Positions 8,789 to 63,038 of a stretch of 64,000 bases of DNA are shown here, in pieces. Under the pieces are notes generated by a model. That model searched no databases. It was not told where the DNA came from and was given only the letters and a program-made list of their open reading frames with translations. Numbering within the stretch: the stretch's first letter is position 1; every line of letters begins with the position of its first letter. The translations under genes were made by a program, and so were the position numbers. The stretch comes from Escherichia phage vB_EcoM-UFV06. The stretch is taken from sequence record OP555980.1, one strand, 5' to 3'.

Positions 8789-9004
8789 TTAAGCCTTTTT
8801 ATCAAGAACAGCATTCAGCTTGTTAGTAATTTTATCCAGACGCTCATTGAACTCACTAGAAGATAAGCCCTTTTCTGGAGAAATTAAACTAATAACGAAA
8901 AATACAACAATAAAAGGAATAAGGAAAATAGCTCCAACTGCCATAAACAGAAAGAATGTTACAGTTGTAAGAAAATCAGCTAAACCTTTACGAAATTTAT
9001 ACAT
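8789..9004 (-). CDS. Hypothetical small membrane protein (71 aa)
   Basis: One strongly hydrophobic predicted TM segment. Confidence 0.45.
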   Translation of the reverse strand: MYKFRKGLADFLTTVTFFLFMAVGAIFLIPFIVVFFVISLISPEKGLSSSEFNERLDKITNKLNAVLDKKA

Positions 9005-17340: not shown

Positions 17341-18249
17341 TTAAGATTTAAGTAAATCAACAATTTTAATTAATTTTTCACGCTCAGATTTAGCTTTACT
17401 ACTCAATCCAGATAGTCTGAAAATTTCATCGTCATACTGTTGAATAGAAATATTTAGCTCTTCAATTTGCTTATTAAAATAATCAATTTGCTCAGAATGT
17501 TTTTCATTACTGCGAACTGGTATAGGGTTTGTAGGCAATTTAGTTGAACTAGATTCATCCGGGCGATAAATTAAAATACAACTTGAACCAATTGGACATT
17601 TTGCACCAGATGAATATTCTAATGTTCCGGCTTCTTTTAAAACTTCAAAAGCTAAACAGAGATGATGCCCCATATTAACATAATCTGTAGAGCGAGCTCT
17701 GATGTAATAATCATCTCCGCGAATACTAAATTTAAAGCATTTAAGGTCTTCTGTATTATTGGTCTTAAAAATCATTTGTTTATCTAGACCTTTAGCTAAT
17801 CGAGCGCCTAATGCTAATAATCGTCGTTGATTTTCCCACAAATCTGCGATCATTTGGTCAAATGATAATTTCGGCATTAGTCGACCATAAAGGTCATATC
17901 CTTTATTATAATTACGAAGGATTTCACTCGCGTTAATACGAGACAATGCTCCAATTTTATTAAGGGCTTTCATAATGCGATTAGATAAACCCATTCCAGA
18001 CCCGTTTGTTCGCTGCAAATGTTTTTCTAATCCAAATCCAATATCAACTTTAAACTTATCTAAAATTTCTGCATGAACATCTCTGTCAATAACATTCAAA
18101 TCCAAAGTTGGGTTAAATCTATGAAAAAATTTATCTGGCTCTCCACGACGAAGTACAGTCCATTCATTCATTTTTTTATTAACTAAAGATTTAATTACTG
18201 TATTGACATTATTAATTACTACTGACATATTTTCCTCACTCAATTTCAA
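17341..18249 (-). CDS. Hypothetical protein (302 aa) with C-terminal coiled coil
   Basis: ORF. Confidence 0.5.
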   Translation of the reverse strand: MKLSEENMSVVINNVNTVIKSLVNKKMNEWTVLRRGEPDKFFHRFNPTLDLNVIDRDVHAEILDKFKVDIGFGLEKHLQRTNGSGMGLSNRIMKALNKIGALSRINASEILRNYNKGYDLYGRLMPKLSFDQMIADLWENQRRLLALGARLAKGLDKQMIFKTNNTEDLKCFKFSIRGDDYYIRARSTDYVNMGHHLCLAFEVLKEAGTLEYSSGAKCPIGSSCILIYRPDESSSTKLPTNPIPVRSNEKHSEQIDYFNKQIEELNISIQQYDDEIFRLSGLSSKAKSEREKLIKIVDLLKS

Positions 18250-18643
18250 TTTTACTAAATATACAGAATATGATGGAAAAGACTATATAAGCACCACAAA
18301 CAGATTGAACTAATACCATTCCAAAGAACCAAACAATATTATCAAACCATGTCTGTTTTACGTCGAAAGGACGTAAACTTACAGTAATATTATCACCTTT
18401 TTCTATTGAAGAATACATCTCTGGGGAAATATATTCACTAAATCTATAACCGTCTTTGAGTTCATATACAGCAATAAACGATAAACTAGACCCCTTTCCT
18501 TGTGTTCCTGTAATAGTATTAACTACAGTAACATCATAATCTTTATAATGCATATAATCATTAATTGCGTAATAACCATATGCAACTACTACACATAAAC
18601 AACATATCAATAAATTCAATCTTTTAATTATCAACTGTTTCAT
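18236..18643 (-). CDS. Hypothetical membrane protein (135 aa)
   Basis: Hydrophobic N- and C-terminal segments. Confidence 0.45.
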   Translation of the reverse strand: MKQLIIKRLNLLICCLCVVVAYGYYAINDYMHYKDYDVTVVNTITGTQGKGSSLSFIAVYELKDGYRFSEYISPEMYSSIEKGDNITVSLRPFDVKQTWFDNIVWFFGMVLVQSVCGAYIVFSIIFCIFSKIEIE

Positions 18644-24348: not shown

Positions 24349-24735
24349 TTATTCGAGGGAAAGAAGATACTTACTCTGGTAAAACATCCCAGTAATATCA
24401 TCTATCGTGCTTTGGATGGCTGGAGGCATTTCTTTATAAATGCTGTTAGATTGGTCTAGTATGCGATCAATCATTTTAATTGTGTCGGTAGGAAGTTTAC
24501 TGGCATCTGGAATTGAAGGCGTGTATTTTCTACCAGAATACCCCAAATATTGCTCACCAAATTTATCAATCAAATCTGGCAACTCGGAAAAAATAAAATC
24601 GTATGCTTTGTGTCTAGCATAACTTTTAGTTTCAAAATGTGCAGAATGAAAATAAGCTTGTGCAGCCATTAATAAACCTAAGTATTCATCTGCCTTTGAA
24701 GGTTTTCCACTTTGTGAAAAGTCGCTGAATTTCAT
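24349..24735 (-). CDS. Hypothetical protein (128 aa)
   Basis: ORF directly downstream of rI. Confidence 0.45.
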
Positions 24736-25025
24736 TCAGTCTCCAATTTAATGTTCATAATTCTAGCGTATGATTGTGCCATCTCCGCGCCTCGTTCTAT
24801 ACATTCAAAATCAGAAGAGCACGGGTCATTTTTATAGGTCGTTCTCATAAAACTATAGAATTGTTCAGACGATTCTACGCTTTTATTTTCAAAAAGTGTA
24901 TAAACGTGCCTAATACCAGATTCCATAAATTTATCAAAATGAGGATCGACATTCGCTTCAATTGATGGAGATAAAACAAATGACAATCCTAGCATGGCAA
25001 AAAGTGCCGTTGCTTTTAAGGCCAT
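24732..25025 (-). CDS. rI: Lysis-inhibition regulator (antiholin) RI
   Basis: 97 aa; signal-anchor N-terminus MALKATALFAMLGLSFVLSPSIEA; matches recalled T4 RI. Confidence 0.8.
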   Translation of the reverse strand: MALKATALFAMLGLSFVLSPSIEANVDPHFDKFMESGIRHVYTLFENKSVESSEQFYSFMRTTYKNDPCSSDFECIERGAEMAQSYARIMNIKLETE

Positions 25026-26463: not shown

Positions 26464-26651
26464 TATTCTTCTACATGTTGTTTACGACCTTTCTTATCAA
26501 TAAAGGTATATTCAACGAATGTTCCAATGTAGTCTTTATCTACATCATGTGGACTATTAATTGGACATTTAGTACGGCAAATGCGTTCCCATTGACGAAT
26601 AATTTCCACTTTGTTTTTAGGATCAAACGGATGTGGGTAATGTACTTTCAT
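26439..26651 (-). CDS. Hypothetical protein (70 aa)
   Basis: ORF. Confidence 0.35.
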   Translation of the reverse strand: MKVHYPHPFDPKNKVEIIRQWERICRTKCPINSPHDVDKDYIGTFVEYTFIDKKGRKQHVEEYCLKVTWL

Positions 26652-27102
26652 AATCCACCACTATTAAATCAATATCAGGAGTAAACATGTCGATTAATTT
26701 AGAAACCTTATCCCAATCGCCGCCAGCAATACCACAACCTATGCGTGGAATGTAAATTACTGGTTTAAACAAAAGGGTTTCTGCCTGTAGATTTAATTCT
26801 ATCATGCAGTTTACTAAAGCACCATAATCAAGATTAGGACCTGGTTCGTATTGCGTATACAAGTTATAACATATGCCAAAACCATTAGGTTTATGTTTAA
26901 AAACAATAGACATATCGCCTAATTTATCACGAGAACCGTACTCGGTAGTGGTTTTATCTATTTCTAAAATTTTGGGATAGGCTCTTGCTAATTGACCAGC
27001 TACACCACTGCCCATTGTATGAAAACAATTGCACCCGTGCGCAATAATATTACCTTCAAGAAAGAGGGCGACAATATCGCCCTTGATATATTTTACAATC
27101 AT
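26623..27102 (-). CDS. Macro-domain protein (predicted ADP-ribose binding/hydrolase)
   Basis: KGDIVALFLEGNIIAHGCNCFHTMGSGVAGQL and IGCGIAGGDW resemble macro-domain binding-loop motifs. Confidence 0.55.
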   Translation of the reverse strand: MIVKYIKGDIVALFLEGNIIAHGCNCFHTMGSGVAGQLARAYPKILEIDKTTTEYGSRDKLGDMSIVFKHKPNGFGICYNLYTQYEPGPNLDYGALVNCMIELNLQAETLLFKPVIYIPRIGCGIAGGDWDKVSKLIDMFTPDIDLIVVDYESTLPTSV

Positions 27103-27446
27103 CTAGTACTCAATCCTCGATTATAAGAATCTACCAAACGGTCAACCATTGAATGACAAGCGGCTTTATCTTTCTCCTCCGCAACTGAACATTCTAAGGT
27201 ATTCCACTTTTTAGCATATCGTTTTAATAATGTATCGTTTTTGTATCTGCTTGATTTATCTCTTTCTCCGTCTTTATATGCATATATTAATTTCTGCGCA
27301 AATTCAGCTTGGCATGCTTTATTTTTCCCACAATAATCTGCCGCAGTGCGGTTCACATACTCCCTAATTTCAGTATATGATGTATCTGCTGACGCATAAG
27401 CAGAAAATGAAATTAATCCTATACATAAAACCAAAATTTTAGTCAT
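27099..27446 (-). CDS. Hypothetical secreted/periplasmic cysteine-containing protein (115 aa)
   Basis: Signal-peptide-like N-terminus MTKILVLCIGLISFSAYASA; four Cys; occupies the position where T4 has vs, identity unverified. Confidence 0.45.
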   Translation of the reverse strand: MTKILVLCIGLISFSAYASADTSYTEIREYVNRTAADYCGKNKACQAEFAQKLIYAYKDGERDKSSRYKNDTLLKRYAKKWNTLECSVAEEKDKAACHSMVDRLVDSYNRGLSTR

Positions 27447-27984
27447 TTACTATTTCCAAAAGTTTATTATTTTTAAGGTAGTTAGCCTTTTCTAGGACTT
27501 CAGAAGCATATTTAGAACCTGCTTTAACATTCCATCCCGAATTATAAGAGGATATTGCTTTTCTTATATCGCCCTTATGTATATTTAACCAATAAGAAAG
27601 TTCAATGTACGCCCAGGAAGCTGAATTGGATCGTTTATTCAACATTCTTTTTATTTCAGCATCGGTCATATTATAACCAAGTTCCTTAACTCTTGCTCGC
27701 ATAGTAGGCAAATAATTTTGGAACATTCCATAAGCGTGATGCTTTGGTTTAGATTTTAAATTAACTCCGCCAGAGCTTTCTTGCCATAAAATAGCAGCCA
27801 TTATATGACCTAATCCGCTCTTGTGGATATTTTTATGTGTTTTATATTTTCCATCCTTAGAAAACTGTTCCCCGAATTGATACGCGTAACGCATGTTATC
27901 GAGTTGGACATTACTGAAAGTATGCTCGGAGCTATGTGCCATCATTGAAATGGCCAATAGACCAGCGAGTAGTGCTTTTCTCAT
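27439..27984 (-). CDS. Secreted lytic-transglycosylase-like protein (SLT domain)
   Basis: Signal peptide MRKALLAGLLAISMMAHS; SLT-like motifs WQESSGG, GMFQ, SYNSG. Confidence 0.6.
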   Translation of the reverse strand: MRKALLAGLLAISMMAHSSEHTFSNVQLDNMRYAYQFGEQFSKDGKYKTHKNIHKSGLGHIMAAILWQESSGGVNLKSKPKHHAYGMFQNYLPTMRARVKELGYNMTDAEIKRMLNKRSNSASWAYIELSYWLNIHKGDIRKAISSYNSGWNVKAGSKYASEVLEKANYLKNNKLLEIVND

Positions 27985-27991
27985 GCTTACC

Positions 27992-28453
27992 TCATTGAGT
28001 TTTAATTACTGCTTTAGAAGCCTTTCCTGGTAAACGACGACTGTTAATAATTGCCATCCTGCATTGAAGCGACGGGTCTTTGAACTTCGCATTAGGTTTA
28101 CAAACTGTAAATCCAAGCCAAAGATTTCCATCTGTGATTTCTAAACGTCCAGGACGATATTCAACCCCATCAATAAAATCCTCGTCAATGTCAGGACGCG
28201 GAGGCATACTCAGGAATTCATTAACTTCTAAAACATGGTCTTTTATTTTATGGAATAATTCAAAAACGTATGTCTCATCAATCTCCCGTTGAATTGCGCG
28301 ATCAAGAAGATGTTGAGAATATTTTAGATGAAACGATGAGACCCCTGCTGCTTTTGATGCCTCACGAATCTCATTGTTAATTTGACGAAACTCCGACTCA
28401 AAGTGACGACGAAGCTTATTTCGACGGATAAAAACTTCTGTGTTGATAGTCAT
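27992..28453 (-). CDS. regB: Site-specific RNA endonuclease RegB
   Basis: 153 aa; length, position and sequence as recalled for T4 RegB. Confidence 0.8.
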   Translation of the reverse strand: MTINTEVFIRRNKLRRHFESEFRQINNEIREASKAAGVSSFHLKYSQHLLDRAIQREIDETYVFELFHKIKDHVLEVNEFLSMPPRPDIDEDFIDGVEYRPGRLEITDGNLWLGFTVCKPNAKFKDPSLQCRMAIINSRRLPGKASKAVIKTQ

Positions 28454-28480
28454 GTTATTCTCCTCTTAACTGATAGAAAA

Positions 28481-28509
28481 ATTATACCACAGTCAAGAGG
28501 AAAAGTAAA
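28481..28509 (-). promoter_or_regulatory. Early promoter (sigma70-type)
   Basis: Minus-strand TTTACT, 17 bp, TATAAT. Confidence 0.55.
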
Positions 28510-29057: not shown

Positions 29058-29271
29058 ATTTGACTTCCTCACCAGTACATAAATCGTATTCAACTAAACG
29101 AATAGGTTCATGAATGCCATATCCCTGAACAGAAATTTCTGTCGTAGGATAAATTCCATCAATATCACCCATATTCCAGGCTTCGTTAAATTGCTGTTCG
29201 CCTGAATTACTAAACCACTCGGCGAAAGCATTTAGCACATCTTTAGAACCTTCAATAATTATCTTTGCCAT
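29050..29271 (-). CDS. Hypothetical protein (73 aa)
   Basis: ORF. Confidence 0.35.
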   Translation of the reverse strand: MAKIIIEGSKDVLNAFAEWFSNSGEQQFNEAWNMGDIDGIYPTTEISVQGYGIHEPIRLVEYDLCTGEEVKYD

Positions 29272-29633
29272 TACAAACTCTCGGTAAAGGTACGAGCGAT
29301 AACGTCGCGCTGCTGTTCCGGAGTCAGAGAGTTAAAGCGAACTGCATAACCGGATACACGGATGGTCAGCTGCGGATATTTTTCCGGATGCTTAACTGCA
29401 TCTTCCAGAGTTTCACGACGCAGAACGTTAACGTTCAGGTGTTGACCACCTTCAATTTTAACTGTAGGCTGTTGCTCAATTTCAATTTCACGGGCATGCA
29501 AACCGTAGAAAATTTCTGGGTCTACAAAAGAGTCCTCTTTAAAAGTTTTAGAGACAATAATTCGTGCTTGAATACCATCTTCAAAATAAATAGTACCTTT
29601 ATGCGTGCCTTCAAGAATTTGATATGCTTTCAT
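29271..29633 (-). CDS. Autonomous glycyl-radical cofactor (GrcA/YfiD-like)
   Basis: C-terminal about 60 aa ([59 protein letters not shown]) match my recollection of E. coli GrcA including the RVSGYAV glycyl-radical motif; the 3-prime half is visibly more GC-rich than its flanks. Confidence 0.85.
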
Positions 29634-38371: not shown

Positions 38372-38557
38372 TTATTCACCTTTAGAAATTTTATCCATAA
38401 CAATAGCGATTAAACCAATTAAAAATGCTACTACAAGTGAAAAAACATTTTCTGCTGTAGTCAATAATCCGCATATAAATCCAACAAACATTGAAAAACT
38501 AAAAGCGGAAGCAGAAATTGCAATAGCAACATTTCGAATTAATTCACAACGTTTCAT
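38372..38557 (-). CDS. Hypothetical small membrane protein (61 aa)
   Basis: Hydrophobic throughout; early promoter upstream. Confidence 0.4.
   Translation of the reverse strand: MKRCELIRNVAIAISASAFSFSMFVGFICGLLTTAENVFSLVVAFLIGLIAIVMDKISKGE

Positions 38558-59900: not shown

Positions 59901-63038
<3,138 letters not shown>

Follow-up and report, generated by a model that had tools for sequence, protein, structure and literature searches.

Does gene vs of the T4-like phages, whose product bears the name valyl-tRNA synthetase (ValRS) modifier, encode a protein of the cytoplasm, or one that is exported along with the product of its neighbor, vs.1? ValRS is a cytoplasmic enzyme, and the named function of Vs therefore requires a cytoplasmic location. 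The question arose from a stretch of 64,000 nucleotides from Escherichia phage vB_EcoM-UFV06 (sequence record OP555980.1), referred to below as the window. A first-pass annotation of this DNA had described two consecutive open reading frames (ORFs) with apparent signal peptides, one of 181 aa with SLT-type lytic transglycosylase motifs and one of 115 aa at the place where T4 has vs, and had remarked on the poor fit between a signal peptide and the cytoplasmic role that Vs is reported to have. The analysis described here indicates that vs.1 and vs probably constitute a conserved, translationally coupled, pre-replicative pair of genes for exported proteins.

Both ORFs were present on the minus strand at the positions given in the first-pass annotation. 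The window belongs to Tequatrovirus; in megablast searches, the region from 26600 to 28500 was 100% identical to Escherichia phage vB_EcoM-UFV09 and approximately 98% identical to hundreds of Tequatrovirus genomes. By tblastn, the 181-aa ORF was the same gene as T4 vs.1 (ORF 61.4, UniProt P13311; 100% identity) and the 115-aa ORF the same gene as T4 vs (ORF 60.9, UniProt P13310; 99.1% identity). The lone difference from T4 Vs was Tyr17 versus Ser, inside the predicted signal peptide. The position assigned to the shorter ORF was thus correct, and more than the position can be stated, as the ORF is vs itself. The gene order in a well-annotated, near-identical relative was tk, tk.1-tk.4, vs, vs.1, regB, and vs.3 onward, and the T4 order tk.4-vs-vs.1-regB is that of the window, with nothing material differing. 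In the T6 record AP018814.1, the vs.1 match (59938-60481, 99.4% identity) was returned by tblastn in two pieces and covered 544 nt instead of 543, which suggests a frameshift or a sequencing error in vs.1 and, possibly, a mis-annotation of that record as well; the features under this match are labeled "rI antiholin" and "hypothetical protein".

Vs.1 matched the Pfam SLT model (PF01464) over residues 61-154 with a score of 25.1 bits (E = 1.4e-5), above the gathering cut-off of 21.3. The motifs WQ-E69-S, Y-G-M-F-Q89, and S-Y147-N-S-G150 were recognized in its sequence. Motifs I-IV of the family-1 lytic transglycosylases were reportedly defined by Blackburn and Clarke in 2001. In an alignment of 26 Vs.1 homologs reaching down to 41% identity, E69, G86-x-F88-Q89-N90, Y147-N148-x-G150, and Y159 were invariant, and S70 was conserved in at least 90% of the sequences. 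The invariant positions correspond to all four family-1 motifs. No conserved Asp was found after Glu69 among these 26 homologs, which would make a transglycosylase likelier than a g-type lysozyme.

An AlphaFold2 (AF2) model of Vs.1 (pLDDT 88, pTM 0.83) placed E69 at the end of the helix formed by residues 59-70. When this model was compared with the PDB using Foldseek, the approximately 30 best matches were GH23 or lysozyme-superfamily enzymes, with MltD, a GH23 chitinase, Slt/Slt70, LtgA, the phi6 lysin, and T7 gp16 at the top. Alignment of the Vs.1 family with the N-terminus of T7 gp16 by hhalign set WQ-E69-S, YGMFQ, and SYNSG opposite WT-E37-S, LGMMQ, and AYNQG (pairwise E = 0.027); E37 of gp16 is presumably its catalytic residue. 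Vs.1 belongs to PHROG 600 (function unknown) and gave weak matches to PHROG families of phage lytic tail proteins, endolysins, and an "internal virion protein with endolysin domain". Neither Vs.1 nor Vs was matched in scans with NCBIfam and PADLOC. From its motifs, predicted fold, and predicted export signal (see below), Vs.1 is very probably an exported member of the family-1 lytic transglycosylases. The SLT-type motifs seen in the first-pass annotation were therefore borne out by the Pfam match, the conserved motifs, and the GH23 fold matches. The genes themselves and this similarity are already known; the similarity is described in Nolan et al. 2006, a study of six T4-like phages that cites an earlier PSI-BLAST analysis from 2003 (PMC1524935).

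Signal peptides were called with an explicit rule set for n-, h-, and c-region architecture, which required a positively charged n-region, a hydrophobic h-region of 7-15 residues, and small residues at positions -3 and -1. Among the 100 non-overlapping ORFs in the window with a length of 60 aa or more, only six passed, including vs.1, vs, and rI, which encodes a known periplasmic antiholin. Cleavage was predicted between MRKALLAGLLAISMMAHS and SEH in Vs.1 and between MTKILVLCIGLISFSAYASA and DTSY in Vs. The mature proteins would then begin with SEHTFSNVQ (N-terminal peptide SEHTFSNVQLDNMR) and DTSYTEIR, respectively. The predicted mature Vs.1 consists of 163 aa (18.8 kDa, pI 9.65) and lacks Cys, and the predicted mature Vs consists of 95 aa (11.0 kDa, pI 8.9; precursor, 13.1 kDa).

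The same rule set was applied to the relatives of both proteins. The signal architecture was present in 26 of 26 Vs.1 homologs, the residues themselves being poorly conserved. It was also present in very distant Vs.1 homologs, namely those of Salmonella phage Det7 (Ackermannviridae), Escherichia phage finno (Felixounavirus), Aeromonas phage 31, and Acinetobacter phage Mokit. For Vs, an extended profile gave 67 clusters at 90% identity, all of which carry the precomputed assignment PF26829 ("ValRS_modifier"). A signal of the signal peptidase I (SPase I) type was found in 56 of the 67 clusters. A lipoprotein lipobox (L-x-G-C; for example, MKKLFVLLIVFALSGC followed by K) was detected by script in at least six, and two further lipoboxes with L-F-G-C (P0120 and P0127) were recognized by eye. 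Neither type of signal was seen in five clusters, whose members are N-terminally truncated or mis-started. The lipobox-type members form a sister clade of the window's Vs, and a change of this kind, from type I to type II signal inside a single family, is difficult to square with a cytoplasmic location. For the window's own Vs, a lipoprotein signal was considered and rejected, because Cys8 lies too near the N-terminus and there is no lipobox. In close relatives, the stretch just before the predicted cleavage site varied by substitutions and indels (SFSAYASAD, SFSASASAD, SFSALAD, and SFSVLAD), unlike the start of the mature protein, which was nearly constant; this pattern is typical of signal peptides. 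We consider that the family-wide conservation of these predicted signals weighs more than the call on any single sequence.

The Vs family is small and confined to phages. When 1.84 billion representative proteins were searched with a profile, eight members were found. Vs matched PHROG 1256 at 1.4e-39. A Pfam scan of the window's Vs did not return PF26829, and its sole match, Cauli_AT (E = 0.08, below the cut-off), was dismissed as due to chance. One 80-aa sequence from a 776-nt ENA contig (P0013) was left out of the profile; it carries the last 30 or so Vs residues behind a lysine/glutamate-rich N-terminus that has no relation to Vs, and probably comes from a chimeric or mis-assembled contig.

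The four cysteines ascribed to the 115-aa protein in the first-pass annotation are those of the mature part; the precursor has five, of which C8 lies in the signal peptide. In the extended alignment, the only invariant columns were the four Cys of the mature part and G60, L73, Y108, G111, and L112. The spacing C-x5/6-C ... C-x8/10-C was kept in 63 of 67 members. An AF2 model of Vs contained four helices (residues 22-39, 43-62, 70-86, and 91-113), with C39/C45 and C86/C97 at the turns of two helix hairpins, an arrangement in which the two pairs would form two disulfides. We regard Vs as a putative disulfide-stapled helical protein of the periplasm, and its predicted export as very probable. The cytoplasmic location implied by the ValRS-modifier name is not what the family points to, as predicted export signals occur in all full-length members together with the four invariant Cys. 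The signal peptides reported for both ORFs thus held up across both families, and the conflict with the reported cytoplasmic role of Vs was strengthened by the lipoprotein-type clade, the invariant Cys, and the strict coupling to vs.1 described below. In a published study, Vs with an N-terminal His tag was insoluble when expressed in E. coli (PMC8076793), as expected of an unprocessed secretory precursor, though this behavior is not specific to one.

The linkage of the two genes was examined at 31 loci, namely the window, 27 IMG/VR loci, two metagenomic contigs, and Acinetobacter phage Mokit. A Vs.1 homolog was encoded immediately upstream of vs on the same strand in all 31. From coliphages to Acinetobacter T4-like phages, the start of vs lay between -8 and +3 nt from the stop of vs.1; the junction was 0 nt at 14 loci, -8 at six, -1 at five, -4 at three, +2 at two, and +3 at one. 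The coupling was kept in Mokit even though its Vs.1 is only 39% identical. The Vs-like protein of Mokit was linked to the family transitively (Mokit_132 versus P0095, 9e-23; P0095 versus the Vs profile, 1.2e-6). Vs diverges approximately twice as fast as Vs.1, with 31-34% identity where Vs.1 shows 65-67%. Together with the export signals and the invariant Cys, the strict coupling fits a co-translated periplasmic pair and not a cytoplasmic ValRS modifier. In the searchable literature, we found no discussion of the family-wide export signals of Vs, its invariant Cys, or its obligatory coupling to vs.1, and no report of a signal peptide or periplasmic location for Vs or Vs.1.

In Mokit and the two metagenomic T4-like contigs, a third gene for a signal-peptide protein of 135-141 aa follows vs (L005 2324-2749; L006 3324-3743; L007 778-1185). 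The three copies look homologous, with a mature start of the form W-E/D-K/Q and a conserved Cys pair. The next genes in Mokit encode a further signal or transmembrane protein and then rI, so that the region looks like a cluster of envelope-protein genes. The window lacks this third gene and has tk.4 directly after vs.

The strong early-type promoter-like site ahead of regB (Table 1) is the likely source of a regB-vs.1-vs transcript. No terminator-like site was found on the minus strand between this site and the end of vs, and 7 nt separate the regB stop from the vs.1 start. The GGAG target of RegB was not found within 20 nt upstream of the start of either vs.1 or vs. In T4, both genes belong to the early RNA class and the middle protein class, and both proteins have been detected (PMC9697503 supplement). 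Together with the upstream promoter-like site, these classes agree with the description of the two as early genes in the first-pass annotation, in the sense that both are pre-replicative.

In a transposon study of T4 by HIDEN-SEQ (doi 10.1101/2025.11.20.689424), vs and vs.1 were both non-essential, with 30 of 32 and 46 of 52 TA sites hit, respectively. In that study, vs was the T4 gene most depleted in M9-glucose relative to LB, and a clean vs knockout formed poor plaques on M9. The log2 fold change between LB and M9 was -2.19 for vs (adjusted p about 0) and -0.87 for vs.1 (p = 0.0055, adjusted 0.155) (Data S8). The mean insertion counts in LB were 26.6 and 22.6 for the two genes, compared with 179 for regB, 290 for tk.4, and 652 for vs.3. 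These data are compatible with vs and vs.1 acting in one pathway. None of the results bears on the link to superinfection exclusion that the first-pass annotation had suggested.

On this basis, we propose the following model. The vs.1-vs pair would be transcribed pre-replicatively with regB from the early promoter. Vs.1 would be exported by a Sec signal peptide that is then cleaved off, would enter the periplasm as a small, soluble lytic transglycosylase of family 1 (GH23/SLT-type) with Glu69 as its single catalytic acid/base, and would cleave MurNAc-GlcNAc bonds of the host sacculus to leave 1,6-anhydro-MurNAc ends. Translation of vs would be coupled to the end of vs.1, and Vs would be exported as well. 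The mature 95-aa protein would form a four-helix bundle in which two disulfides staple two helix hairpins, and would work in the envelope together with or on Vs.1, as a binding partner or regulator. The pair may thus serve as an accessory envelope-remodeling module that is dispensable in rich medium and aids fitness during slow growth in minimal medium. We give an even chance to the step in which Vs acts with or on Vs.1. The more specific proposal, that the vs ORF encodes no cytoplasmic ValRS modifier at all and instead an exported, disulfide-stapled periplasmic partner (regulator or inhibitor) of Vs.1, is put forward tentatively, as plausible and somewhat short of an even chance. If it is right, the complex of ValRS with the T4 factor called tau could form only when periplasm and cytoplasm mix at lysis, or tau could be the product of another small ORF between rI and e, such as vs.3 or vs.4. 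The defect of vs mutants in minimal medium would in that case have its origin in the envelope.

Several points weigh against the model. The signal-peptide calls rest on a simple rule set and not on SignalP, and no data on localization, cleavage, or activity of Vs.1 or Vs were found in the searchable literature. Only one of five AF2 models of Vs was confident. The likeness of Vs.1 to solved transglycosylases is distant (Foldseek E = 6e-3 to 0.4, TM-score 0.44-0.54), and when PDB sequences were searched with the Vs.1 family profile, the outcome was no more than a marginal match to a g-type lysozyme (E = 0.53). By tblastn, Vs.1 was found in 2045 phage records and Vs in 795, so that most phages with Vs.1 are without Vs, and unrelated ORFs occupy the slot after vs.1 in Aeromonas phage 31; Vs.1 accordingly does not need Vs, which looks like an add-on. 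In the transposon data, the weaker effect of vs.1 in M9 could reflect polarity on vs, and the low insertion counts of both genes could reflect insertion bias. Finally, the classical literature and all databases call Vs a binder of the host ValRS, a cytoplasmic enzyme.

Among other explanations, the likeliest is a special case of the partner model, in which Vs would be a periplasmic inhibitor or immunity-type protein that restrains Vs.1 or another muramidase, such as the tail lysozyme of a superinfecting phage or a host transglycosylase, in the manner of T4 Spackle on the gp5 lysozyme or of inhibitors of the Ivy/PliG type. The predicted properties of Vs (small, helical, exported, and disulfide-containing), its gene beside that of a muralytic enzyme, and its fast evolution relative to Vs.1 would suit such a role. 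So would the finding that loss of vs is worse in M9 than an insertion in vs.1 (-2.19 versus -0.87), since vs.1 insertions probably lower vs as well and a stronger effect of vs loss is expected if unopposed Vs.1 is harmful. However, Vs.1 is evidently tolerated alone by the many phages that have no detectable Vs, and the low counts of vs.1 insertions in LB are not predicted by a pure toxin/antidote model. On balance, inhibition appears rather unlikely.

The classical explanation holds that Vs is the cytoplasmic tau factor, which binds and alters E. coli ValRS. Its N-terminus would then be unused or its export inefficient, and its adjacency to vs.1 would reflect genome packing. Papers credit Muller and Marchin (1975/1977) with a T4 factor by which ValRS is bound and modified, and this factor is attributed to the 115-aa protein. 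PHROG 1256 and PF26829 bear the name, and the impairment of the vs knockout specifically in minimal medium, where amino acids must be made, would suit a role related to translation. The purified factor is said to be approximately 10 kDa, which is close to both the mature form and the precursor of Vs and nearer to the former; this size has been counted for the classical explanation, yet being nearer to the mature form it would fit a processed protein, and in that case the complex with ValRS might form only after cell breakage. Other evidence goes the opposite way. The export signal occurs in every full-length Vs member, and the lipoprotein signal to which one clade has switched makes sense only outside the cytoplasm. 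Four invariant Cys in 95 aa point to disulfides, which are formed in the periplasm. Strict translational coupling to an exported enzyme was seen at 31 of 31 loci in phages of very different hosts, and divergence at about twice the rate of Vs.1 is not obviously expected of a ligand of a highly conserved synthetase. Moreover, no primary evidence was found by which this ORF is identified with either the vs locus of genetics or the tau peptide, the original sequence record giving ORF 60.9 only. We therefore judge a cytoplasmic Vs to be unlikely.

The product name of Vs has been shortened to "valyl-tRNA synthetase" in many GenBank phage records, which wrongly implies an aminoacyl-tRNA synthetase, and in at least one paper Vs has been discussed as a phage-encoded synthetase (PMC10698182).

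A third explanation concerns Vs.1, which might be a secreted auxiliary lysis enzyme, similar to a secretory or signal-anchor-release (SAR) endolysin, that aids the e lysozyme at the end of infection instead of taking part in early remodeling. The predicted muralytic fold and export signal are as expected of such an enzyme. The Vs.1 homolog of phage finno is annotated as "putative lysin" and is encoded near spanin genes, and Nolan et al. suggest "some role in cell lysis" (PMC1524935). On the other hand, vs.1 RNA is early and its protein middle, not late, and vs.1 is non-essential, whereas insertions in e and t were essentially absent from the T4 transposon library. The features of a SAR endolysin were not found in Vs.1 either: an uncharged stretch at residues 4-19 contains a hydrophobic core of approximately 13 residues followed by the A-x-S cleavage motif (A-H-S before the next S), and the homologs have a short h-region with A-x-A/S/G sites, all of which fits a cleaved signal better than a SAR anchor. 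A role in lysis is thus improbable. Least probable is that Vs.1 is a catalytically dead or non-muralytic relative of the transglycosylases, for example a peptidoglycan- or glycan-binding protein. Its weak likeness to characterized enzymes (Pfam E = 1.4e-5, Foldseek E no better than 6e-3, PDB profile E = 0.53) and a 40-residue N-terminal extension without counterpart in known transglycosylases would allow this. Against it, the catalytic Glu-Ser and the other family-1 motif positions, four in all, vary little or not at all down to 41% identity and lie in register with the experimentally studied transglycosylase domain of T7 gp16.

T4 is the reference phage from which annotations are copied to hundreds of genomes, and 795 phage records carry a "valyl-tRNA synthetase modifier". 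If Vs is located in the periplasm and acts with Vs.1, a functional assignment found in textbooks has to be reconsidered, and the minimal-medium phenotype of vs receives a different explanation. T4 would also gain a third muralytic activity besides gp5 and e, with a dedicated partner, which would bear on how infected cells maintain or lose an intact wall when they grow slowly and when lysis is inhibited. Should the classical assignment hold, a protein whose export signal is conserved would be acting in the cytoplasm, and this itself needs explanation. The family-wide features of Vs pose a concrete, testable challenge to a long-standing annotation.

The coordinates of the features are collected in Table 1.

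Table 1. Features of the vs.1-vs region and other ORFs passing the signal-peptide rule set (positions of the window)
Feature	Position	Strand	Basis or remark
vs.1 coding sequence, 181-aa precursor of a predicted periplasmic family-1 (GH23/SLT) lytic transglycosylase	27439..27984	-	
vs.1 signal peptide, aa 1-18, MRKALLAGLLAISMMAHS, predicted SPase I cut after A-H-S	27931..27984	-	rule set; homologs
Glu69 codon, predicted catalytic acid/base, E-S motif at C-terminal end of helix 59-70	27778..27780	-	invariant 26/26; AF2 model; T7 gp16 alignment
vs.1 stop / vs start, 8-nt overlap (GTAAATGACTAA), predicted translational coupling	27439..27446	-	
vs coding sequence, 115-aa precursor of a predicted exported four-helix protein	27099..27446	-	
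vs signal peptide, aa 1-20, MTKILVLCIGLISFSAYASA, predicted SPase I cut after A-S-A	27387..27446	-	rule set; variation among close relatives
Cys39 and Cys45 codons, C-x5-C, helix 1/helix 2 turn, predicted first disulfide	27312..27332	-	alignment, spacing, model; disulfide predicted
Cys86 and Cys97 codons, C-x10-C, helix 3/helix 4 turn, predicted second disulfide	27156..27191	-	alignment, spacing, model; disulfide predicted
regB (endoribonuclease), immediately upstream of vs.1	27992..28453	-	Pfam REGB_T4 1.4e-68; annotation of near-identical record
Early-type sigma-70 promoter-like site, TTTACT-17-TATAAT with upstream TG, ahead of regB	28481..28509	-	10/12 match
Other rule-passing ORFs (signal or membrane anchor)	8789-9004, 18236-18643, 38372-38557, 24732-25025	-	last is rI (MALKATALFAMLGLSFVLSPSIEA...)

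Downstream of vs, a macro-domain ORF at 26623-27102 on the minus strand (Pfam Macro, 6.2e-8) corresponds to T4 tk.4. In a 2025 preprint this gene was named AdfM, an anti-DarTG2 counter-defense factor, and its product is still given as "phosphatase" or hypothetical in many records. A terminator-like hairpin at 27065-27083 on the minus strand, with an 8-bp stem containing 5 GC pairs and followed by CTTTCTTGAA, lies 16 nt past the vs stop within the 5' end of tk.4. This palindrome scores on the plus strand too, and the hairpin might attenuate transcription after the vs.1-vs pair. Further upstream of vs.1, a 120-aa ORF at 29271-29633 on the minus strand is vs.6; both Nolan et al. 2006 and the annotation of a near-identical phage describe its product as a GrcA-like autonomous glycyl-radical cofactor.

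Known systems offer partial parallels to the predicted pair. Spackle (gp61.3) of T4 is an early periplasmic protein, small and helical, that has a signal peptide and contains disulfide; its partner is the gp5 tail lysozyme. By analogy, Vs would resemble it in being small, helical, exported, and disulfide-containing with a muralytic partner; the gene for Spackle, unlike vs, is not adjacent to that of its target, and no sequence or fold similarity between Vs and Spackle was detectable. Ivy, PliG, and MliC are small exported proteins that bind GH22/GH23 enzymes and have beta-rich folds, in contrast to the all-helical fold predicted for Vs, which gave no fold match to them. Among secretory and SAR endolysins, P1 Lyz and fOg44 Lys44 are Sec-exported before lysis, are encoded by late genes, and act as the main endolysin. 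Vs.1 differs from these two in being early/middle and non-essential and in its short, predicted cleavable signal. With the GH23 family-1 enzymes E. coli Slt70, Pseudomonas aeruginosa MltD and Slt, and Neisseria LtgA, Vs.1 shares the Pfam SLT match, the motifs E-S, G-x-[MF]-Q, and [AS]-Y-N-x-G, the goose-lysozyme-like helical fold (by model), and the periplasmic location (predicted). Unlike them, it is small, with a single domain of 163 aa in the mature form and without superhelical, LysM, or lipid-anchor modules. It has approximately 15% identity and a TM-score of approximately 0.5 to solved GH23 structures, relative to which it carries an extra N-terminal helix and beta-hairpin (residues 25-57). 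The N-terminal domain of T7 gp16 is likewise a phage-encoded SLT-type domain with its motifs in register with those of Vs.1. However, gp16 is a 1318-aa virion protein that is ejected at entry and has no signal peptide, whereas Vs.1 is a small early protein with a predicted Sec signal, made inside the infected cell.

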